Source of the DNA: a virus
Virus record (IMG/VR): IMGVR_UViG_3300008255_000115
Coordinates: 1 to 64,000 of that record
Strand: one strand, 5' to 3'
Length of the DNA: 64,000 bases
Shown: piece by piece, positions 3,164-33,510 of the stretch
Layout: every line of letters begins with the position of its first letter
Numbering within the stretch: the first letter of the stretch is position 1
Made by a program: the position numbers and the translations under genes
Notes under the pieces: model-generated
The model's database searches: none
The model's input: only the letters and a program-made list of their open reading frames with translations
Told to the model about the DNA's origin: nothing

Positions 3164-3569
3164 AGATTTTATTAAACCAACAGCAGAAGATTTAGGTCAG
3201 TCAGAACAATTAGTTGATGATGTAGTAGGATTTTATTGGGCAGCAGTAAGGAAGGGACTCTCTGAACTTGAGAGCCCTTCTGTTGTTGTTATTAATTTAG
3301 GGACTTTTAAAATAAGACATAACAAAATTGAAAAAGCAGAAAAAAGATATAAGAACTATATAAATAAACTAGAAGTTGAAAAAATGACTTTTAATAAACA
3401 CACTCTTCTAAACATTTCTAAGTCTAAACTTGAAAAACTTGAAAATATTAAAAATGAAATGAATAGTGAATTTGAAAGAAAAAAAGAAGTACAAACCAAA
3501 AGAAAAGAATATGTCAACAATAAAACTCTGGAAAAACAAAGGAAAGATTTTAGAAGGTCTGAAGAATAA
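3144..3569 (+). CDS. HU/IHF-like DNA-binding protein
   Basis: KDFIKPTAEDLGQSEQLVDDVV...VVVINLGTFKIR fits the HU/IHF helix-helix-beta pattern; IHF-like genes occur in crAss-like structural modules. Confidence 0.7.
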   Translation: MNPKKPKDFIKPTAEDLGQSEQLVDDVVGFYWAAVRKGLSELESPSVVVINLGTFKIRHNKIEKAEKRYKNYINKLEVEKMTFNKHTLLNISKSKLEKLENIKNEMNSEFERKKEVQTKRKEYVNNKTLEKQRKDFRRSEE

Positions 3570-5151: not shown

Positions 5152-8100
5152 ATGTATAGAGAAAGAGATTACCCTATATCAATTCCAACATGGGAAGCAG
5201 GTGAATGGATTGAAGATACTATCTTTGAAACACAAGTACAATTTATAGAATATCTAAAAAACTTATTTAAAGAACCTGGAAAGTATGAATTTGATGAATC
5301 AGTAGTTCATTGGCAGGATCAATCAATGAATTATAATAAAATTGGTTATTACTGTCAACATCCTACAGGAACAAGAGACTTCATACAATATTGGAATGAT
5401 CAAAAAAATAAATCTAGAATAGGAGTTATATATAAATCTGGATCTAGGCAATGGTACTTAACAAGAGATTATTATTTTTGGTTAAACTTTCTACCTATAT
5501 TTGATAAAGAAAAAAATGAATATGATTTTCCACTTATATGGGATATTCAATATCACATGGCTCTTTATGAGTTATTAGCTGAATTAAATAATAAACATAG
5601 TGTTATACTAAAGAAGAGGCAAATTGCCAGTAGTTACTTTCATTGTGCTAAATTAACCAATTATTATTGGTTTGAAGAAGGAGCTAAACTTAAAATGGGA
5701 GCATCTCTTAAAGATTATATAAATCTTAAAGGATCTTGGAAAATGCTTAATGAATATTCTGATTTTCTTAATGAACATACAGCATGGATAAGACCTCATA
5801 ACCCAGGTAAAGTAGGAGATTGGGAACAAAAAATACAAAAAACAATAGGAGGTAGAGATATAACAGTAGGACTCAAATCAACAATGTCTTCTTATACTTT
5901 TGAAAAAGATGCTACATCAGGCGTAGGTGGGCCCTGTAGATATTTCTTTCATGAAGAAGCTGGTGTGGCACCTAAGATGGATGAGACATATGAATTTATG
6001 CGTCCTGCCTTACATTCAGGTATGATTACTACAGGAATGTTTATTGCAGCAGGTTCTGTTGGTGATTTAGATCAATGTGAACCTTTGAAAGAATTTATGC
6101 TTCATCCTGAAGAAAATGATTTTTTTGCTGTAGAATCAAACTTAATAGATGAAGAAGGTACATGGGGTAAGCATGGATTGTTCTTACCTGAACAATGGTC
6201 AATGCCACCATATATTGATGAGTTTGGAAATTCTATGGTTGAAGAAGCTTTAAAAGCAATTCATGAGCAAAGACTAAAATGGAAGAAAGATTTAGATCCT
6301 GGTAAGTATCAATTAAGAATTTCACAAAAACCCACAAATATAAGGGAAGCTTTTGCATATAGAAATGAAAGTAAATTTCCATTACACTTACTTACTAATC
6401 AACAAAGAAGAATTGAAGATAAACAATATCACGAAGAGCATATAAATTTGAAAAGAGGTACTGATGGTAAAAGTATTATAGTAACTAAGTCTAATAAAAC
6501 ACCAATTAGAGAATTTCCTATTAGGAAAAGTGAGACAGACAAAGAAGGAGTTATTGTTGTATGGGAAAGACCTGTAGTTAATCCTGAATTTGGAATGTAC
6601 TATGGATCTATAGATCCAGTAGCTGAAGGAAAAGCAGAATATATTGAAAATAATATTTATACACCAAAGGGTAAAGTAAAAATAAAAGATTTAAAAGTAG
6701 GAGATAAAGTAATAGGTTCTAATGGTAAACCTACATTAATAACTGGCATTTTTCCTCAAGGAAAAAAAGAATTATATAGAGTAACATTTAATGATGGTTT
6801 TAGTATTTTAGTATGCAAAGAACATTTATGGTCAGTAAGAGCCTCAGATAATGATAAAAAAGATAATCATGTATTATCTGTTGGGGATATGCTTGATGAA
6901 AATAAATTAATTAAAAGTCATGGTATAAATAGAAATTCTACAAAAGAATATACTACAAAAACTTTTTATAAAAAAGGTAATAATCAAAACAGATGGAAAA
7001 TACCAATTGTTAAACCTATTCATTTTAAAAAAACAAGTTTACCTATTGACTCTTATTTACTAGGATTATTATTAGGAGATGGGGGATTGTCAGGAAGATC
7101 TATAGTTTTTAGTACAGCGGATAAGGAATTATTAAGATATATAAGAAATATATTACCTGAAACTATTAATATAAAGTATATTGGTCAATATGATTATAGA
7201 TTAAGTAGTACACTATCTAGAAATACATTAACTCAAAAATTAAGAAAACTGAATTTAGTAGGTAAAAAATCAGGAACTAAATTTATTCCTGATATATATT
7301 TAAAAGGAACAATAGAAGATAGATTAAAGCTTATTCAAGGCTTGATGGATACAGATGGTTATTGTGGAAATAATGGTGCAGAATACTATAGTATATCAAA
7401 AGACTTAGCTTATGGGATGGTGGAATTATGTCATTCATTAGGAGGATTAGCAAAAATCAGAAAAAAAATTACAAACAGAAAAAAAAGAAATGGAGTAGGT
7501 TATGTTTATGTAGTAAGAGTTATTTTACCTCCACAATTTATTCCATTCAAATTAAAAAGAAAAGCTGATATTTATAAACCTACAAAAAACTTTACAAGAT
7601 ATATATCTAATATAGAATTTGAAAAAATAGATGAGGCTATTTGCATTTCTGTAGAAGCTGAAGATAATTTATATGTTACAGAAAATGCAATTGTCACACA
7701 TAATACAACCACTTCAGATTCTTTATGTTCAATTTATATTTATAAAAATACAGTAGAGATTTCTAAACCTGATGAAAATGGTAATATGAAAACCCATGTA
7801 GAAGGTGGTAAAATAGTAGCAACATGGTGTGGAAGATTTGATGATATTAATCTTACACATGAAAGACTAGAGTTACTAATAGAATGGTATAATGCATGGA
7901 CAGTAGTAGAAAATAATATTTCTTTATTTATACAACATATGATTGCTCAAAGGAAACAAAAATATTTGGTTCCAAAAGATCAGATATTATTCTTAAAAAA
8001 TGTTGGTGCTAATAAAGCAGTATATCAAGATTATGGATGGAGAAATACTGGTACTCTATTTAAGAACCACATGATATCTTATGCAATTGAATTTCTGAAA

Positions 8101-8436
8101 GAAAAAATGGACATACAATATAATGATAATGGGGAACTACTAGGTATAGTATATGGAGTAGAAAGAATACCTGATATAATGCTTCTTAAAGAAATGTCTG
8201 AATATAGAGATGGTCTAAATGTGGATAGACTGGTTGCCTTTGCAGCATTAGTTGCTTTTGTAAGAATACAGGAATCTAACAAAGGATATAAGCGTGTAGT
8301 GGAATATGAAGATACTAAAAGCTTGGAAAAGTCCAAAAAAATGTTTAAATTAAGTAAGAGTCCCTTCACTAATATTGGAACAACTAAAAAAGGTTTTGGT
8401 AAAAGAAGTAGAAGTGGTTTTAAAAATATACACTAA
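5152..8436 (+). CDS. terL: terminase large subunit (intein-containing; about 737 aa after splicing)
   Basis: Walker A-like LKKRQIASS, Walker B YFFHEEAG, RNase H nuclease YYGSIDP; directly upstream of the portal gene. Confidence 0.92.
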   Translation: MYRERDYPISIPTWEAGEWIEDTIFETQVQFIEYLKNLFKEPGKYEFDESVVHWQDQSMNYNKIGYYCQHPTGTRDFIQYWNDQKNKSRIGVIYKSGSRQWYLTRDYYFWLNFLPIFDKEKNEYDFPLIWDIQYHMALYELLAELNNKHSVILKKRQIASSYFHCAKLTNYYWFEEGAKLKMGASLKDYINLKGSWKMLNEYSDFLNEHTAWIRPHNPGKVGDWEQKIQKTIGGRDITVGLKSTMSSYTFEKDATSGVGGPCRYFFHEEAGVAPKMDETYEFMRPALHSGMITTGMFIAAGSVGDLDQCEPLKEFMLHPEENDFFAVESNLIDEEGTWGKHGLFLPEQWSMPPYIDEFGNSMVEEALKAIHEQRLKWKKDLDPGKYQLRISQKPTNIREAFAYRNESKFPLHLLTNQQRRIEDKQYHEEHINLKRGTDGKSIIVTKSNKTPIREFPIRKSETDKEGVIVVWERPVVNPEFGMYYGSIDPVAEGKAEYIENNIYTPKGKVKIKDLKVGDKVIGSNGKPTLITGIFPQGKKELYRVTFNDGFSILVCKEHLWSVRASDNDKKDNHVLSVGDMLDENKLIKSHGINRNSTKEYTTKTFYKKGNNQNRWKIPIVKPIHFKKTSLPIDSYLLGLLLGDGGLSGRSIVFSTADKELLRYIRNILPETINIKYIGQYDYRLSSTLSRNTLTQKLRKLNLVGKKSGTKFIPDIYLKGTIEDRLKLIQGLMDTDGYCGNNGAEYYSISKDLAYGMVELCHSLGGLAKIRKKITNRKKRNGVGYVYVVRVILPPQFIPFKLKRKADIYKPTKNFTRYISNIEFEKIDEAICISVEAEDNLYVTENAIVTHNTTTSDSLCSIYIYKNTVEISKPDENGNMKTHVEGGKIVATWCGRFDDINLTHERLELLIEWYNAWTVVENNISLFIQHMIAQRKQKYLVPKDQILFLKNVGANKAVYQDYGWRNTGTLFKNHMISYAIEFLKEKMDIQYNDNGELLGIVYGVERIPDIMLLKEMSEYRDGLNVDRLVAFAALVAFVRIQESNKGYKRVVEYEDTKSLEKSKKMFKLSKSPFTNIGTTKKGFGKRSRSGFKNIH
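6634..7704 (+). mobile_element. class-3 (Ala1, WCT) intein with LAGLIDADG homing endonuclease, 357 aa
   Basis: GK|AEYIENNIYTPKG...CKEHLW...LLGLLLGDG...IQGLMDTDG...AICISV...IVTHN|T. Confidence 0.9.
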
Positions 8437-11258: not shown

Positions 11259-11304
11259 AAACTTTCTTAGTTTATCATTATAAATTTTAGTATATTAAAG
11301 TATA
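11259..11304 (+). promoter_or_regulatory. phage promoter motif
   Basis: AAACTT-tct-tAGTTT, then TTTAGTATATTAAAGTATA upstream of the scaffold/MCP genes. Confidence 0.65.
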
Positions 11305-11327
11305 GACATTTTAAAACCAACAAAAGT

Positions 11328-12581
11328 ATGTCAGAAACAAAACCAATAACTGAGGTTAAACAAATCACAACAGATGAATTGGATAACCTCTTAGGAACAC
11401 CAGGAGCTGAAGCAATAATGGTCCCAGGTGAAGAAGTAAAGGCTAAAAAGCCATCGTTCTTTGATAATGGAAAAGTAAATATGGACTTCATAGATAATGA
11501 AGGATCAGATACAGATTCAGAAGATACTTCAGATAAAAAAACAGATGATAAAACTAAACCAGTTGAGTCATTTGATGATATTGTAAAAGATGCAGATAAG
11601 GAAGAGGAGGAAGAGCAAGAAAAGAAACAGGGTAGACCACCTCTTGATAAAACAGGAATGGCTCAGTTAGCTAAGTTATTAATTGATGAAAAAGTAATTC
11701 TTCCTTTTGATGAAGATAAACCTTTAGAAGATTATACTATAGAGGACTACAAAGAATTATTTGCTCTCAACATACAAGAGAGAGAAAACAAAGTAAAAGA
11801 AGAAACTCCAAAGGAATTTTTTCAAGCTTTACCTCCTGAATTACAATATGCTGCAAAATACGTTGCTGATGGTGGAACAGATTTAAAAGGCTTATTTAGA
11901 ACTTTGGCACAAGCTGAAGAAAGTAAATCAATAACTATTGATACACCAGAAGGACAAGAAAAAGCAGTAAGACAATTTCTTCAAGCTACAAATTTTGGAA
12001 CTGTAGAAGAAATTCAAGAACAAATAGACAGTTGGAAAGACTTAGAAAAATTAGAAGATAAAGCTCAACAGTTTAAACCACGTCTAGATGCAATGCAAGA
12101 ACAAATTATTAAGCGTCAACTAGCAGAGCAGACACAAAAGAAAAAACAAAGAGAAGCTGCATCTCAACAATATGCAGATAGTATTTATAATACATTAGAA
12201 AAAGGAGAACTTAATGGATTAAAAATTAATCCTAAAGTTCAAAACTTATTATATGATGGTTTAATTAATGCAAACTATCAATCAATATCAGGTCAGCCAA
12301 CAAATATGTTTGGACACTTGATTGAAAAACATCAGTATATTGAACCTAATCATGGATTAATTGCAGAAGCCTTATGGTTACTACAGGATCCAGAAGGATA
12401 TAGAGCTGAAATTGCAAAGGGTGCAAAAAATGCGACAGTTGAAGCAACAGCAAGGCAATTAAAGATGGAACAACAAAGTAAACATGAGGGAGGAGAAGAC
12501 ATCCAACCAGGAACAGACAGAAAACCAGGAAGTGGAGCAACATTAAAAAGACCACCAAAGGGATTCTTTAAAAGAGACTAA
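11328..12581 (+). CDS. acidic scaffold-like capsid assembly protein
   Basis: Very acidic, helical 417-aa protein between portal and MCP. Confidence 0.6.
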   Translation: MSETKPITEVKQITTDELDNLLGTPGAEAIMVPGEEVKAKKPSFFDNGKVNMDFIDNEGSDTDSEDTSDKKTDDKTKPVESFDDIVKDADKEEEEEQEKKQGRPPLDKTGMAQLAKLLIDEKVILPFDEDKPLEDYTIEDYKELFALNIQERENKVKEETPKEFFQALPPELQYAAKYVADGGTDLKGLFRTLAQAEESKSITIDTPEGQEKAVRQFLQATNFGTVEEIQEQIDSWKDLEKLEDKAQQFKPRLDAMQEQIIKRQLAEQTQKKKQREAASQQYADSIYNTLEKGELNGLKINPKVQNLLYDGLINANYQSISGQPTNMFGHLIEKHQYIEPNHGLIAEALWLLQDPEGYRAEIAKGAKNATVEATARQLKMEQQSKHEGGEDIQPGTDRKPGSGATLKRPPKGFFKRD

Positions 12582-12619: not shown

Positions 12620-14236
12620 ATGGCAACTCCAGTATTGAATAATGGGATTTTCTTGAGAGACACGCAATATAATGCAAGTTCTCACGTTGACTCATATCAC
12701 TTGGTGAACATGTTAAAAGATGCAGATCCTATGGACTTAGGTCCAGTAGATATTTGGGCTATGGCTCAAAAAGTAGAAATGCCTCTTTATCAAATGAGTT
12801 CATTTGGTGGTAAAAATGTAATCATGGTAAACAATCACCGTGGTGAGTATAAATGGCAGACTCCAATATCACAGGATCTTCCTTATATCATTGAAGATAT
12901 AGAACCAGATAATGAGCGTAAAGGTCAGGATGGTACTACATTCAAGATCAAACTTAACAAACGTGAGTTTGGACATGGTGATATCATTACTTATGACAAA
13001 TATAATGGTTATGAGTTATACATTACTGATGAAGATATTCTTCCTATTGGAGATGGCTTTATTTATACAGTACGTCTAGTAAATAATGATAATGTTAAAT
13101 ACTTAGATAACAAGTACCTTAGAGAAGGAATGAAGTACTTCAGAAAAGGTTCTGCTAGAGGTGAATATGGAGAGAGATTCTCTGACATTATTACTGGTTC
13201 AGGATTCAGAGAATTCTACAATTATGTAGGTGGTGCAGAAGCTCATGTTCATTATTCTATCTCTTCAAGAGCAGATATGATGATTAAAGGTGGAATGAAA
13301 GCAGATGGAACAGTACCTGTTACTGAAATCTGGAGAAACTTTGATAAGAATGTTAATCCTTCAGTTGCATCTTTAGAAGGTTTAGTTTCTACAATGGGTA
13401 AATCATATGTTAAAAAAGCAATGGAAAATGGTTCTCTATCAAGAAGTTTCTTAACTTCATTAGAGGCTGCTCACTTGAGTAAAATTGCTAATGATATTGA
13501 GACTTACTTAATGTGGGGACATGGTGGTAAAATCCGTCAAGATGGTCCAGATGATTTAAGATTATCTGTAGGTCTTTGGAAACAATTAGATAACTCATTC
13601 AAAAGAGTATATAATAAAGGTAATTTTAATCTTGATTTATTCAAATCTGAACTTTATAACTTCTATCAAGGAAGAGTTGAGTTCAATGGTCCAGACCCAA
13701 AAAGACAATTGATTGTTCAAACAGGTATTGGAGGAATGAAGCTAGTAAATGAAGCTATCAAGTTAGAAGCTAATGCTGCTGGTCTTGTAATTCAAGCTGA
13801 TGATATTGGAGCTATTACAGGTAAAGGTATGGATCTTGGATTTGGATTTGCTTACACTAGCTATGTAATACCTTTCTTAGCAAATGTTAAGTTTGTACTT
13901 AATCCAGCATTTGATAATTTACATACTAATGATATTGAGAATCCTATCATTGATGGTCATCCTCTAAGTTCATATAGTTTTGTAATTTTTGATATTACTG
14001 ATACAGGTAATGATAACATATTCTTATTAAAACTTGATTGGGATAATGCTTTAAAATGGTGGTATCAAAATGGTACTATGGATTACATGGGTAGAACTCA
14101 AGGATTCCAATCTTCAGGTCAGTTTAATGGTTACAGAGTTATGATGACTCAAGTTATGCCAGCAATCTGGGTTAAAGATCCAACTAAAGTTCTTAAAATT
14201 GTAATGAGAAATCCTATTACAGGAGGTTCATTCTAA
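12620..14236 (+). CDS. major capsid protein (crAss-like)
   Basis: 538 aa; position; YLMWGHGG...GLWKQLD segment typical of HK97-fold capsids; followed by stem-loops. Confidence 0.85.
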   Translation: MATPVLNNGIFLRDTQYNASSHVDSYHLVNMLKDADPMDLGPVDIWAMAQKVEMPLYQMSSFGGKNVIMVNNHRGEYKWQTPISQDLPYIIEDIEPDNERKGQDGTTFKIKLNKREFGHGDIITYDKYNGYELYITDEDILPIGDGFIYTVRLVNNDNVKYLDNKYLREGMKYFRKGSARGEYGERFSDIITGSGFREFYNYVGGAEAHVHYSISSRADMMIKGGMKADGTVPVTEIWRNFDKNVNPSVASLEGLVSTMGKSYVKKAMENGSLSRSFLTSLEAAHLSKIANDIETYLMWGHGGKIRQDGPDDLRLSVGLWKQLDNSFKRVYNKGNFNLDLFKSELYNFYQGRVEFNGPDPKRQLIVQTGIGGMKLVNEAIKLEANAAGLVIQADDIGAITGKGMDLGFGFAYTSYVIPFLANVKFVLNPAFDNLHTNDIENPIIDGHPLSSYSFVIFDITDTGNDNIFLLKLDWDNALKWWYQNGTMDYMGRTQGFQSSGQFNGYRVMMTQVMPAIWVKDPTKVLKIVMRNPITGGSF

Positions 14237-14320: not shown

Positions 14321-14362
14321 CTATAAGATGACTTAATTATAAACCAACTAAAACCAAAACAG

Positions 14363-18434: not shown

Positions 18435-18453
18435 TCTTTTAAAACCAATAAAA

Positions 18454-18648
18454 ATGGCAAGATGTGGAAATTGTGGAGCTAAATTAAGTTGCTCCTGTAA
18501 AATGAGAAAAGCATCAGATGGCAAATCATGCTGTGTAAACTGCATCTCAAATTATGAAAAAATAATAAAAAAATCAAAAGTTTTAAAAACTTTAATTCCT
18601 GATACTATACCAGGAATTATATTAAATACTACCGCAGTACAGACATAA
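18454..18648 (+). CDS. small metallothionein-like Cys-rich protein
   Basis: 7 Cys in the first 30 aa (CGNC...CSC...CCVNC); AAACCAA leader. Confidence 0.65.
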   Translation: MARCGNCGAKLSCSCKMRKASDGKSCCVNCISNYEKIIKKSKVLKTLIPDTIPGIILNTTAVQT

Positions 18649-22852: not shown

Positions 22853-23398
22853 ATGGCTTGTACTAAATGTAATAATAACAGATGTGGTTGCAAAGATTCT
22901 GCACAGTCTATGGTAACTAGTTTTAGCAATTGTCCTAATCCATGTGAATCTAAAGAAACATGTGTTGAGGTTTTTGATATGCATTGTATTTGCTATCAAG
23001 GAGAAGACATTGTTGAATATGATATTAAAAAAGGAGACAGATTAGATGAAATTATGCAAAAATTAATACTTGCATTAACTAATGTAGGATGTGCATCATT
23101 CGGAGATCCATTATCTTGTCAAAGTCCTATTAACTTAACTGTATCAAATATTACATCTCAGTCATTTGAATTAGCATGGGATTCAACACCTTTAGCTACA
23201 TCGTATATAGTGGAATATAAAGATAGTACATCATTAACATGGTTACTAAATCCAACTGTTGTAGCCCCAACAACTAATGATACTATTATTGGTTTACTAC
23301 CAGAAAGAGTATATGATATTAGAGTAAATGCAATTTGTCCATTGGGCACTTGTTATTCATTAAATATAAGAATTGCAACATTAGCTGCAACAACTTAA
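22853..23398 (+). CDS. Cys-rich fibronectin type III domain protein
   Basis: P-x-NLTVSNIT-x-QSFELAW...YIVEYK...GLLPERVYDIRVNAIC is a canonical FN3 pattern. Confidence 0.8.
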   Translation: MACTKCNNNRCGCKDSAQSMVTSFSNCPNPCESKETCVEVFDMHCICYQGEDIVEYDIKKGDRLDEIMQKLILALTNVGCASFGDPLSCQSPINLTVSNITSQSFELAWDSTPLATSYIVEYKDSTSLTWLLNPTVVAPTTNDTIIGLLPERVYDIRVNAICPLGTCYSLNIRIATLAATT

Positions 23399-23418
23399 AC
23401 CAAATAAAAAATTAAATT

Positions 23419-24630
23419 ATGGCAACAGTAACAGCAACAATTACAATAGACTTTACAGCTAACTATGCTGGAGCACACAGAGTATGTTTTAGAATCCAAG
23501 GATCTGGAGATCCTTATGATTGTACTACATCAGTAGCATGCATAGGAGGTGGTACAACATGTCAAGCAATTATTACAACAAATGTTAACACAACAAGTTG
23601 TGATGGACCTATAACCTTTGAAGGTTATATCCAAGCAGCATGTGAAGATGTGTTATCTACAGGAGGTAGACTAGCATGGACAGCATTATTTACACCTAAT
23701 GTGATTTGTCAAAGAACAGAAGTATTATGTGCAAGAGGTCCGATTCAAGTTGTAACACCTAATCCAGGTGGACAGGAATATACTCTATCTGATACTGTTA
23801 CAGTAGTCAGAAATGGAGCAGATACTGAAGTGGATAATGCTATTATATCAATAGGTACAGTTGGAGATGGTATTATTAATTCTATTTCTAGTTTATTATC
23901 TCCTGGTACAGGATATACTGCATTAGATGTACTAACAATTGTTGATGCTACTGCTTCAGGTATTGGAGGTACAATTAGAGTAGATACAATAGGTGGTAGT
24001 GGTGAAATATTAACTTATACACTAACTGCAGGAGGTTCACAATATATTGGTGGATTTACTTTTACAGGAGGAACAGGTGTTGGAGCTAACTTTGATATAC
24101 AATCAAATGGCGTTGACTATAATAAATATGGAGCAATCACAGGAATTACAATAACAAATGGTGGTTCTTATTCAATAACTCCTACAATTACAATAACAAC
24201 AGCTACAGGCAGTGAAGCAGTTTTAGATGTAACTCTAGCTCATTGTGGCATTTATAATGATGTAGGTCTAGACTGTATAGGTGGAGATCCAGTAAATATA
24301 GCTGATGGAGATTTAAACGTAGGTGATACATTTGTAACTTGTATAAATGGTGGTCTAGTTGCTGCAACCCCAACTGAATATGATGTTACAGAAACAGGAT
24401 GTTGTATTCCAGAAGACACAGATATATCACCATGTACTGACTACCACTTAGATAATGGTTCAGGAGTACCTGTTAATGTTCATATTACTAATTGTGAAGG
24501 AAATGATGAAATATTAGTAGTTCCCGCATTAACAAGCATAAATAGATGTCTAGTTACTGGTGGATTTATTGATCCACAAGTAGCAGGGTTCGTAGTTCTA
24601 GATACAGGTGGGCCATGTGTAGTATCCTAA
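23419..24630 (+). CDS. Gly/Thr/Cys-rich virion structural (fibre/spike-like) protein
   Basis: Repeated NPGGQEY / SPGTGY / AGGSQY / NGGSY units. Confidence 0.6.
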   Translation: MATVTATITIDFTANYAGAHRVCFRIQGSGDPYDCTTSVACIGGGTTCQAIITTNVNTTSCDGPITFEGYIQAACEDVLSTGGRLAWTALFTPNVICQRTEVLCARGPIQVVTPNPGGQEYTLSDTVTVVRNGADTEVDNAIISIGTVGDGIINSISSLLSPGTGYTALDVLTIVDATASGIGGTIRVDTIGGSGEILTYTLTAGGSQYIGGFTFTGGTGVGANFDIQSNGVDYNKYGAITGITITNGGSYSITPTITITTATGSEAVLDVTLAHCGIYNDVGLDCIGGDPVNIADGDLNVGDTFVTCINGGLVAATPTEYDVTETGCCIPEDTDISPCTDYHLDNGSGVPVNVHITNCEGNDEILVVPALTSINRCLVTGGFIDPQVAGFVVLDTGGPCVVS

Positions 24631-24638
24631 AAGAAAAA

Positions 24639-24715
24639 GTTAGATGTGAGGTTTGTTGGTTTAACCACTACTAACATAAGCCCTGGAGATCAATGATCTC
24701 TGGGGCTTGCTTTTT
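24639..24715 (+). ncRNA. candidate small RNA or 3'-UTR element with anti-leader loop UGUUGGUUU
   Basis: Stem GTTAG..GT..GGTT / AACC-AC..CTAAC closes loop TGTTGGTTT; terminator follows immediately. Confidence 0.4.
24678..24715 (+). terminator. Rho-independent terminator
   Basis: 14-bp stem AAGCCCTGGAGATC-aat-GATCTCTGGGGCTT (two G-U pairs), then GCTTTTT. Confidence 0.85.
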
Positions 24716-24760
24716 ACAATAATTAAACTTATCTTTACACTATAAAAAATACTATGTACT

Positions 24761-25546
24761 ATGTGTATAAAAAGAAAAAGACTTTTCTATGACATTGAAA
24801 CAAGTTTTTGTCAGGGACACTTCTGGAAACCAGGATACAATCAAAACATCCTTCCTCATCAAATAATAAAACATGCTCAAATCATATGTATCTCTTGGAA
24901 ATGGGAAGGAGAAGATGAGATTCATAATGTTGATTGGGGTTTAAAAAAACAAGATGACAAAGAATTATTAAAGAAATTCATTATTGAACTGGATAAAGCA
25001 GATGAAATAGTAGCTCATAATGGTGATAGCTTTGACATAAAATGGATTAGAACCAGAGCAGTATTTCATAACCTTAAAATGAAACCTAAGTATAATATGA
25101 TTGACACCTATAAGTTAGTCAAATCATACTTAAGATTACCTTCAGCATCTTTAGCAGCAGCTTGTAGCTATTATCAATTAGAAGCTAAGAAAGATCCAGG
25201 TGGAATAGGAACATGGATAGACATTGTTTTTGGTAAGTCTCAAGAAGCTTTAGATAGAATGATTGATTATTGTAATGGAGATATTATAAGCTTGGAAGCT
25301 TTATTTCAAAAAATAAAACCATACATACTTCATAATTTACATTATTCAGTCCTAAGAGGAGATGAGAAATTTCATTGTCCTGAATGTGGACTTCTTGGTA
25401 AATGGAATCAAACTTATACTACCAAAGCAGGTACAACAACACATTGGTTAAAATGTAAAGATTCAAGTTGTAGAAAATATTGGAAAGTAAATAACAAGAT
25501 ATATCAAGACTTCAATAAGTATAAATGGAAGAATGGTATTAAGTAA
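24761..25546 (+). CDS. DEDDy 3'-5' exonuclease (RNase_H_2/YprB-like) with C-terminal Zn ribbon
   Basis: ExoI YDIET, ExoII HNGDSFD, ExoIII YCNGD; CPECG...CKDSSC. Confidence 0.85.
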   Translation: MCIKRKRLFYDIETSFCQGHFWKPGYNQNILPHQIIKHAQIICISWKWEGEDEIHNVDWGLKKQDDKELLKKFIIELDKADEIVAHNGDSFDIKWIRTRAVFHNLKMKPKYNMIDTYKLVKSYLRLPSASLAAACSYYQLEAKKDPGGIGTWIDIVFGKSQEALDRMIDYCNGDIISLEALFQKIKPYILHNLHYSVLRGDEKFHCPECGLLGKWNQTYTTKAGTTTHWLKCKDSSCRKYWKVNNKIYQDFNKYKWKNGIK

Positions 25547-25600
25547 ACCTTATAAGTTTAAACTTGTAAACCTCATAAATTTTTAGTATATTATAGTATA
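25545..25600 (+). promoter_or_regulatory. phage promoter motif with palindrome
   Basis: AAACCT-tat-AAGTTTAAACTT, then TTTAGTATATTATAGTATA. Confidence 0.7.
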
Positions 25601-25607
25601 AATAACT

Positions 25608-26123
25608 ATGTCAACATTTAAGAAACCTGACTTATCAGCTCCTAGGTTTAGACCAAAGAGTAAAAATATTTTAAATAAAGCTTTATATATTGCTTTTATT
25701 GAAAAATATCCTAATTATAAAGGATTAAGTCCTAAAGTATTTAAAGACATAATATTAAAATATAATGGATCAATAAGAAAGGCTGTAATTAGCAATAGAG
25801 ATGGTGTTAAACTTCCAGAAAGTTTAGGTTATATACTTATTGCAAAATGTGATAAACCTAAAGGTGATAATACAGATTTTGTAGCATCAGCAAAGTATGG
25901 TAAAAAAGTAAATCATGCTAACTGGGATTCAGATAATTATTTAGCTAAAATATGTTATACAAACTATTCAGTTAAGTATAGATTTAGTGATAGAGAACTT
26001 TGGTCATTTAAAGCTGTTAAACAGTTTAGAACAAGTGTAGCAGAAAGTTTTCCTGAACTATATAATAAATATATTCACTTAACAGAACATACTAAATTAC
26101 ACGGGCTCTTTAAAAATACATAA
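25608..26123 (+). CDS. divergent HU/IHF-like protein
   Basis: Basic; FKDIILKYN...IRKAVI...GVKLPESLGYILI...WSFKAVK; same position as IHF-like genes before crAss-like tail genes. Confidence 0.55.
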   Translation: MSTFKKPDLSAPRFRPKSKNILNKALYIAFIEKYPNYKGLSPKVFKDIILKYNGSIRKAVISNRDGVKLPESLGYILIAKCDKPKGDNTDFVASAKYGKKVNHANWDSDNYLAKICYTNYSVKYRFSDRELWSFKAVKQFRTSVAESFPELYNKYIHLTEHTKLHGLFKNT

Positions 26124-26124
26124 A

Positions 26125-26805
26125 ATGGCAACAACAATTGGATATACAGTATCAAGAGTAAGAAATAGTATGAAGGCTGTAAAAGAAGATGCCTTTGTAA
26201 CAGATAGATATTTATGGAGTGTTATTACAAAATATGCTAAATTATTTATAAAGCGTCAGGATAATCAAGATAAACTTTTAAGATTTAAAAGCTTTTGGAA
26301 AACTCTTCCTTGTGTTGAATTAACTGAAGTAGACAAAATAGAAGCTTGTTGTGGTATTACATCAGGATGTACTATTATGCGTACAAAGGATAAACTACCT
26401 ACACCTTTTGAGGGACCTTTTGGTCCCATGTTTAGAACAGTATCATCAGTAGATGTGTCTCAAGAAATATATCCAACTGAACCTGGAACATATAGTTCTA
26501 TGAGTAAAACAACTACTTTCAAGTATAACAAAAGTAAATACTACTGGTGGTTAAATGGTTATATGTATTTTCCAAATATTCCTTGGGATGCTATTAGAAT
26601 TGAAGGAGTATTTGAAGATGATATTAATCAATTTGCATGTGATGGAAAAGATGCTGCAGGTGAATGTACACTTAAGCAAGATCAAGAAACTAATATTCCT
26701 GATGATCTATTTGCAGAAATAGAAAAACAAGTATTAGCAGAAATATTACCACAAACTCAATTACCTCCAGATAATACAGATAATAAACAAAATCAATTTA
26801 GATAA
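26125..26805 (+). CDS. tail ring/tubular structural protein
   Basis: Ring-protein layout (N-terminal helices, YYWWLNGYMY, IEGVFED, C-terminal helix); position. Confidence 0.55.
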   Translation: MATTIGYTVSRVRNSMKAVKEDAFVTDRYLWSVITKYAKLFIKRQDNQDKLLRFKSFWKTLPCVELTEVDKIEACCGITSGCTIMRTKDKLPTPFEGPFGPMFRTVSSVDVSQEIYPTEPGTYSSMSKTTTFKYNKSKYYWWLNGYMYFPNIPWDAIRIEGVFEDDINQFACDGKDAAGECTLKQDQETNIPDDLFAEIEKQVLAEILPQTQLPPDNTDNKQNQFR

Positions 26806-33461: not shown

Positions 33462-33510
33462 ACTTCTAAAGTTTATAAAGTTAAATAAAAATTTAGTATA
33501 TTATAGTATA
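33460..33510 (+). promoter_or_regulatory. phage promoter motif with palindrome
   Basis: AAACTT-cta-AAGTTT, then TTTAGTATATTATAGTATA (19/19 identical to 25582-25600). Confidence 0.75.

Follow-up and report, generated by a model that had tools for sequence, protein, structure and literature searches.

In phages P1 and P7 the small antisense RNA c4 (Rfam C4) uses exposed loops to block the ribosome-binding region of phage messages; it lies upstream of its one target in the same immunity operon, from which it is cut out by RNase P. RNAIII and the Rsa sRNAs of Staphylococcus aureus direct C-rich hairpin-loop seeds at the Shine-Dalgarno sequence of many mRNAs, whilst RegA and gene 32 of phage T4 are protein repressors acting on translational operators. 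OppZ and CarZ of Vibrio cholerae, both derived from a 3' UTR, can repress translation (PMC7398697), and the Bacteroides thetaiotaomicron sRNA GibS base-pairs with Bacteroidota mRNAs where translation starts without a Shine-Dalgarno sequence, and thereby represses them (PMC7366714). The means by which Bacteroidota phages direct translation where Shine-Dalgarno pairing is lacking are very poorly known, and no regulatory RNA is described for crAss-like phages in the literature and the Rfam release that we searched, literature searches on the motif string analysed here, on crAss-like phage sRNAs and on promoters returning nothing relevant.

Here we analysed the first 64 kb (the window) of a 99,192-bp contig from a crAss-like phage, in which a first-pass annotation had pointed to a candidate sRNA whose loop is antisense to a leader motif of late genes. 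The element is a hairpin in a 3' UTR, and the sequence comparisons below indicate that its loop probably pairs with a start-region tag of a few assembly genes. By analogy it resembles a 3'-UTR-derived, terminator-ended base-pairing sRNA and appears to fall outside every catalogued family, no Rfam family reaching its gathering score in the window. With OppZ and CarZ it shares a position in which the final gene of an operon ends upstream of it and the operon's intrinsic terminator follows, together with a short start-region seed; a feedback role is plausible. Unlike in OppZ and CarZ, the hairpin shows its seed in a loop and not in a single-stranded 5' stretch, the putative targets are located 1 to 24 kb upstream and belong to other transcription units, with a weaker AAACCAA in the leader of the element's own gene, and the element is encoded by a phage, the sole known host of the wider phage group being a Bacteroidota species. 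In such a host Hfq would not be expected.

The annealing around start codons without a Shine-Dalgarno sequence that we propose is like that of GibS, which differs in standing alone between host genes and in having a long 5' seed free of structure; the Rfam GibS model (RF04182; gathering score 115) matched on the minus strand with 18.2 bits. As with c4, a phage-encoded RNA would present a seed in a loop to a ribosome-loading region, but the two have no sequence or structure similarity (Rfam C4 gave no match in 24560-24780 even at E up to 10) and the putative targets are here a set of assembly genes instead of one. A conserved hairpin-loop motif facing a shared ribosome-binding motif recalls RNAIII and the Rsa sRNAs, from which the element differs in its U/G-rich loop and phage-specific A/C-rich tag, the RNAs being unrelated. 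Post-transcriptional control of a phage gene set through a shared start-region element, as proposed here, also has a counterpart in the operators of RegA and gene 32, although the conserved complementary partner is in our case an RNA.

The phage and its possible hosts

The whole 99-kb genome of the phage (G000) was compared with two related genomes, G005 and G006. Its major capsid protein, of the Crassvirus type, is encoded at 12620-14236 (Pfam Crass_capsid match), and giant ORFs lie downstream of the capsid gene in the window; genes up to about 64 kb are all on the plus strand, whilst the replication genes are on the minus strand. The DNA comes from aquifer and groundwater metagenomes, all 24 of the 24 runs with the sequence being DNA runs, and the window sequence was identical in the four DNA runs compared, with zero variants. 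A nucleotide search of a phage collection for a cultured close relative returned no match; by capsid protein the closest cultured phages are 26-29% identical, amongst them Cellulophaga phage phi4:1 (26%) and cyanophage Lbo-JY46 (29%). The ribosomal protein bS21, an alternative route by which phage messages might be favoured, was looked for and is absent. The first-pass annotation had also supposed a host group that does not use Shine-Dalgarno pairing, which the Bacteroidota host of phi4:1 would suggest by analogy.

A promoter-like box recurs at about 1959-1971, 11286-11306, 25582-25600 and 33492-33510 of the window, 20-35 nt 5' of several operon-initial genes, and consists of TTTAGTATATT, then TGTACA, AAAGTATA or ATAGTATA. 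The copy 5' of ORF 1998 matches the Bacteroidota -7 consensus TAnnTTTG. Similar TATNTTTG boxes also lie 5' of genes in cyanophage Lbo-JY46 (L389), so the box is not safe as evidence of the host. A 1094-aa ORF at 5152-8436 (+), just 5' of a portal-sized gene and hence in the position of the terminase in phi4:1, matches LAGLIDADG_3 (E 1.7e-12) and, weakly, Hint, a combination suggestive of an intein within the large terminase.

A hairpin between a stop codon and a terminator

ORF 23419-24630 (+) encodes a 403-aa protein, occupies the tail-fibre position and has no sequence match in Pfam, PHROG or PDB. Its stop codon (24628-24630) is separated by a gap of 46 nt from an intrinsic terminator at 24677-24715 (+), and its 3' UTR is made up of an anti-leader hairpin (24639-24675, +) followed by this terminator, which has a 15-bp stem (24677-24709, with 7 G-C pairs), a 3-nt loop and then CTTTTT (T-run 24711-24715), as is characteristic of Rho-independent termination. 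The hairpin combines an outer stem, GTTAG (24639-24643) with CTAAC (24671-24675), and, in the fold of the region, an inner stem, GGTT (24650-24653) with AACC (24663-24666) on the plus strand. The loop motif, TTTGTTGGTTT, was found at 24652-24662 (+), between the stop codon and the strong terminator as the first-pass annotation had described, with an invariant core, TTTGTTGGT, at 24652-24660.

The loop-presenting hairpin of the window is weak (-6.4 kcal/mol, z-score -0.01 against shuffles), and since its fold energy is no better than that of shuffled sequences it is covariation in relatives that carries the structural case. With the covariance model R1 the hairpin scores 44.6 bits, and the 99-kb genome has no other strong copy. 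The stretch just 5' of the hairpin showed no conserved promoter box, which makes an origin from the 3' UTR likelier than a stand-alone gene.

Downstream of the terminator, a DnaQ-like exonuclease gene (PHROG 403) and a 171-aa ORF occupy 24761-26123 (+), in front of a conserved 226-aa virion gene at 26125-26805. This gap 3' of the hairpin holds zero genes in phi4:1 and a single other ORF in L127-L129, and appears to be an insertion hotspot.

Conservation and covariation of the hairpin

Two sets of relatives were retrieved without reference to the loop, one via the upstream protein and one by capsid similarity. All seven of the loci found via the upstream protein carry one copy of the hairpin, directly 3' of the homologous stop codon; the homologues of ORF 23419-24630 in L125-L131 are 31-75% identical, and the hairpin that follows each has the same loop and a different stem. 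The long contigs picked by capsid similarity alone have exactly one R1 match each (5/5), a pattern scan of IMG/VR gave at least about 25 further instances, and hairpin and tag are kept across well over a hundred environmental phage contigs. The layout of stop codon, hairpin and terminator is identical in all relatives, with an intrinsic terminator 2-6 nt 3' of the hairpin in every one.

In 24 distinct sequences both sides have changed in six of the seven stem pairs, and the covariation score was reached by none of 500 shuffles, whilst controls slid along the alignment collapse. The loop core TTTGTTGGT is invariant in the 24 aligned instances and in the loop-independent sets, variation of the loop being confined to its last two bases, in L128 and L255. 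Because the stems use G-U pairs, the structure exists only on the plus (transcribed) strand. Judged from this comparison, the hairpin is a selected RNA structure, conserved far beyond chance; the first-pass annotation had proposed looking in related phages for a conserved loop on a covarying stem, and the relatives have borne it out.

Synteny via the downstream exonuclease gene gave 41 loci in which the upstream regions are unrelated and hold no hairpins, and motif discovery in these distant loci was uninformative because they hold no late genes. An exact 17-mer match in L003 was rejected as chance, since it falls within the coding region of an unrelated contig, and the contigs behind L004, L005, L016 and L031, which are fragments or other phages, have no convincing hairpin. 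An upstream helper hairpin (L122, L127, L129) was also discarded, as it is not kept in the main clade.

A leader motif complementary to the loop

The exact reverse complement of the loop motif, AAACCAACAAA, occurs at 289-299 and 11314-11324, and the loop core (in RNA form UUUGUUGGU) is the exact complement of a leader core, ACCAACAAA, both being invariant over 9 nt. Allowing one mismatch or none, the 11-mer has 10 matches where 3.5 are expected, a number reached by one of 100 shuffles. Over the complete 99-kb genome, with its 91 ORFs, 10 copies of AAACCAA were counted in the -30 to -1 leaders against 0.66 expected, and none of 5000 within-leader shuffles reached 10, an excess on which the first-pass annotation had staked its reading beforehand. 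The copies that it had listed, two 11/11 complements at the starts of ORFs 299 and 11328, one with a single G-U pair before 18454, and AAACCAA 5' of ORFs 1998, 3511, 14363 (twice) and 23419, were all recovered in place.

The sites in the window are on the plus strand. The exact 11/11 complement at 289-299 ends on the A of ATG 299 (95-aa ORF), and the orthologue in G005 also has AAAACCAAAATATG. AAACCAA at 1985-1991 lies 6 nt 5' of ATG 1998 (88-aa ORF), of which the G005 orthologue has AACCAA in its leader, whilst the copy at 3493-3499, 11 nt 5' of ATG 3511 (a 101-aa ORF inside a longer GTG frame), is the weakest member of the set. The other exact 11/11 complement, at 11314-11324, lies 3 nt 5' of ATG 11328; the 417-aa product of this gene is acidic and coiled-coil-like and the gene sits between the portal and capsid genes, which together make it scaffold-like. 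The sequence has a second AAACCAA inside ORF 11328 (11340-11346), and orthologues in G005, G006 and the capsid loci keep the motif both 5' of and just after the ATG. This second copy in relatives lies in the first codons, ATG GAA GAA ACC AAC AAA (E-T-N-K), for example in G006 at 81311 (minus strand) and in L086, so that the scaffold-like start codon is flanked by two potential pairing sites.

Two copies (AAACCAACTAA and AAACCAA, 14341-14357) end 5 nt 5' of ATG 14363, the start of the gene directly 3' of the capsid gene, which encodes a 338-aa protein; the duplicated motif is also kept in relatives, and this site gives the best predicted duplex with the loop, at -15.7 kcal/mol. A structure search with the predicted 338-aa protein (mean pLDDT 72) gave no match at E 0.001 or better, and sequence searches of PDB with the target proteins were likewise without result. 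AAACCAATAAA, which has one G-U pair with the loop, lies at 18442-18452, 1 nt 5' of ATG 18454. ORF 18454-18648 (+) encodes a 64-aa Cys-rich protein with CxxC...CxC...CCxxC spacing and no Pfam match; it may be a zinc-ribbon-like, nucleic-acid-binding partner in the system. In relatives the motif is always there, as AAAACCAACAAAT 5' of the ATG in 28 distinct orthologous leaders of this gene, and a conserved TTGTTAA 5' of it is the end of the preceding ORF. Finally, AAACCAA at 23397-23403 lies 15 nt 5' of ATG 23419, the gene with the hairpin in its own 3' UTR, and AACCAAA is kept in the homologous leaders of L125, L126, L127 and L129, not in that of L128.

Orthologues in G000, G005 and G006 share the motif at the gene 5' of the capsid gene, in the portal-capsid gap (417-429 aa), the gene 3' of it (338 aa) and the Cys-rich gene (63-71 aa), whilst a 95-aa ORF and an 85-88-aa ORF have it in G000 and G005 only. 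The first-pass annotation had envisaged the tuning of a set of late genes; the part of this that stands is a narrow set comprising the capsid-flanking genes, the Cys-rich gene and a few small ORFs, and not late genes generally, the capsid gene itself being without the motif. Most leaders in G005 read AACCAAACAA, so that pairing with the loop would need a bulge. In a duplex screen 12 start regions reached -10 kcal/mol or better, whilst 200 shuffled loops averaged 3.4 such regions and had 12 at most; U/G-rich loops find partners in many A-rich leaders, which limits the energy screen to a moderate specificity. A leader hairpin with the motif in its loop and the AUG in its stem was considered and rejected, its folds being weak (0 to -3.3 kcal/mol) and inconsistent.

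Across 80 capsid loci (1.2 Mb) ACCAACAA occurs 253 times in sense and 48 times in antisense orientation. One hundred of the sense copies end 1-4 nt 5' of the ATG of an ORF, a second peak 14-20 nt upstream is made up of duplicated copies and a third falls inside the first codons; the motif is also found 5' of internal operon genes. From its distribution, the leader motif behaves as an RNA-level signal linked to the start codon. A double-stranded DNA site, with TTTGTTGGTTT/AAACCAACAAA bound by a regulator near late-gene starts and, inverted, at the operon end, would account for the presence of the same 11 bp in both orientations; it is nevertheless very improbable given the strand bias of 253 to 48, a spacing that follows the ATG and not the promoter-like boxes, the copies before internal operon genes and inside first codons, and the location of the inverted copy in a loop whose stem covaries and contains G-U pairs.

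Since the motif sits where a ribosome-binding site would, we also considered whether it is a ribosome-recruiting tag that pairs with host rRNA as a substitute Shine-Dalgarno sequence, the hairpin loop being an rRNA-mimic decoy. We credit this hardly at all: in ten 16S-23S operons, from eight Bacteroidota (Roseithermus counted in) and two cyanobacteria, any of which may differ from the host, no stretch of at least 7 nt of UUUGUUGGUUU is conserved at a fixed place, Shine-Dalgarno-like mRNA-rRNA pairing with the motif was not found, and the 16S 3' end is of the usual CCUCC type.

Concerted change of loop and leader in phage phi4:1

Phage phi4:1 has, directly 3' of its tail-fibre gene gp046, a 9-bp hairpin with the loop UUUUUUGGUUUUUA followed by a terminator, the loop motif being UUUUUUGGUUUUU. 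The next gene, gp045, is homologous to ORF 26125-26805 (29% identity, E 7e-24), so the position of the hairpin is equivalent in the two phages, with two extra genes inserted in the window phage. The phi4:1 gene in the position of ORF 23419-24630 is annotated as a tail fibre and has no sequence similarity to that ORF.

Amongst 26 annotated late start regions, the top predicted partners of the phi4:1 loop are those of gp063 and gp065, the genes that flank the capsid gene gp064, with duplexes of -10.0 and -9.6 kcal/mol, the next best being -7.4; were all 26 start regions equally likely, the chance of exactly this pair would be ~0.003. The two leaders read AAAACCAAAAAC and AAAAACCAUAAAAAAA, and a G-to-U change in the loop is matched by a C-to-A change in both, a co-variation that counts as one independent event. 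The antisense relation between loop and leader, put forward from the window alone, is thereby strengthened by a distant cultured phage in which the two change together. As in a seed of the OppZ/CarZ type, there are 9-nt invariant cores on both sides, conserved targets and, in phi4:1, a compensating change. Neither gp063 nor gp065 is marked as virion-found in the record, whilst annotated neighbouring virion genes are, which fits a role as assembly factors. Cyanophage Lbo-JY46 has neither hairpin nor motif in its head module.

A conserved tail and an alternative helix

In every instance of the large clade the 3' arm of the hairpin is directly followed by CTRACAA or, in one subgroup, overlapped by TAACAA. 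Its counterpart in the window, ACTAACA at 24670-24676 (+), can pair with 24654-24660 to form a second helix (helix B), and this loop-tail helix is the choice of both the minimum-energy fold (111-nt context) and the RNAalifold consensus. By explicit energies helix B is at -5.3 kcal/mol in the window and the hairpin at -6.4, and in relatives the two are within 0-5 kcal/mol of each other. The cells of helix B are paired in 92-98% of cases in the 24 sequences, compared with 26-70% in slid controls; the sole changes are A to G opposite loop U residues, and there are no both-side changes. Loop and tail are invariant, so covariation cannot prove helix B. The 3' arm and tail read GGCUAACAAG in most relatives (ACUAACA here), which differs from the leader motif AACCAACAAA by transitions after which the loop can still pair through G-U wobbles; this wobble copy means that the loop may be self-masked, and helix B is plausibly a self-masking device.

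The tail is also needed for the outer stem in the window, L125 and L126, so that hairpin and helix B are mutually exclusive there. In the main clade the geometry, with a 7-bp stem, a second helix of 5-7 bp and connecting loops of 0-1 and 4-8 nt, would be compatible with an H-type pseudoknot in which stem 1 covaries and the loop-tail helix is paired at the frequency given above without both-side changes. Such a compatible geometry, the high pairing of the loop-tail helix and the constant position 2-6 nt 5' of an intrinsic terminator would suit a purely structural 3'-end element, hairpin plus loop-tail helix, that stabilises the late mRNA or tunes the terminator and for which the leader match is functionless. 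Covariation would be expected in a structural helix, yet neither loop nor tail varies, and phi4:1 keeps the hairpin without any tail; moreover, an 11-nt exact match to a separately conserved motif, at the same targets and with the compensation in phi4:1, is very unlikely to be incidental. We regard this explanation as quite improbable.

A shared RNA-binding protein, of phage or host, that reads a single-stranded YAACAA-type sequence in both the leaders and the hairpin tail would cast the hairpin as an operator or decoy whose loop hides or exposes the tail. Here the tail CTRACAA is as conserved as the loop and, with the 3' arm, wobble-equivalent to the leader motif, the two folds differ little in energy, as they should in a switch, and a conserved motif-bearing gene encodes the small Cys-rich, zinc-ribbon-like protein. 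Against these points, the loop matches the leaders by perfect Watson-Crick complementarity but the tail only through wobble pairing, loop and leaders of phi4:1 remain complementary with a base changed although that phage has no tail copy of the motif, and no RNA-binding domain was found in the candidate proteins. On balance we think a protein reader unlikely.

A model for pairing between the 3' UTR and leader tags

We favour instead pairing between the loop and the leaders. The module would consist of the hairpin with its antisense seed loop, the conserved tail and the intrinsic terminator of the operon, located in the 3' UTR of the last tail-fibre-like gene in the block of virion genes, and it may act within the mRNA itself or as a stable 3' fragment that outlasts decay of the message; we infer such an RNA species and its pairing in vivo. 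The loop would pair with the A/C-rich tag ACCAACAAA, 1-4 nt 5' of the AUG and sometimes again in the first codons, at the two genes next to the capsid gene (the scaffold-like one 5' of it and the one 3' of it), the small Cys-rich gene and two small ORFs. By analogy with GibS and OppZ/CarZ, a duplex that stops 1-4 nt short of the AUG should block loading of the 30S subunit, which is the most likely effect of pairing so near the start codon. Transcription of the tail genes would then feed back negatively on head-assembly proteins; this direction is a guess, and the reason for a phage to repress its own assembly genes is not obvious. The 3' arm and tail may mask the loop until a perfect target displaces the wobble copy. 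The interpretation as an antisense RNA that the first-pass annotation had offered has passed the computational checks proposed with it (conservation, covariation and enrichment), whilst its breadth of targets has narrowed and the loop may be masked by the tail.

A more elaborate version, which we hold to be unlikely though a little less so than a protein reader, is a translation code private to the phage, in which ACCAACAAA would mark a few assembly genes as a phage-specific tag for ribosome loading and the 3'-UTR RNA would be a self-masked riboregulator carrying an anti-tag and a weakened wobble tag, opened by strand displacement only by perfect targets above a threshold concentration. This toehold-like switch would couple tail-gene transcription to head-assembly output in hosts without Shine-Dalgarno pairing.

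Pairing of the loop with the leader tags would make a compact system of one hairpin, one 9-nt tag and about five target genes, and its recognisable variant in the cultured pair of phi4:1 and Cellulophaga baltica makes it directly testable. If true, it would be the first example of RNA-based feedback between phage tail and head modules and a natural handle for translation control in Bacteroidota.

Two further observations concern the tail and the motif. The tail UAACAAG (L122, L127, L169 and others) and the start of the main-clade stem, GUCG, together spell GUCGUAACAAGG, a universally conserved segment of 16S rRNA (16S 3' ends in L279 and L301); with a match of 4+7 nt, the likeness between hairpin and 16S segment is no more than coincidence would give, though of interest should the RNA contact the ribosome. 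AAACCAACAAA has a fourth exact 11/11 copy at 65513-65523 of G000 on the minus strand, ~1.5 kb past the end of the window, between two minus-strand genes and directly 5' of a small hairpin and T-run, with no adjoining start codon; it could be a further pairing site, for example in a 3' UTR, or a chance occurrence.
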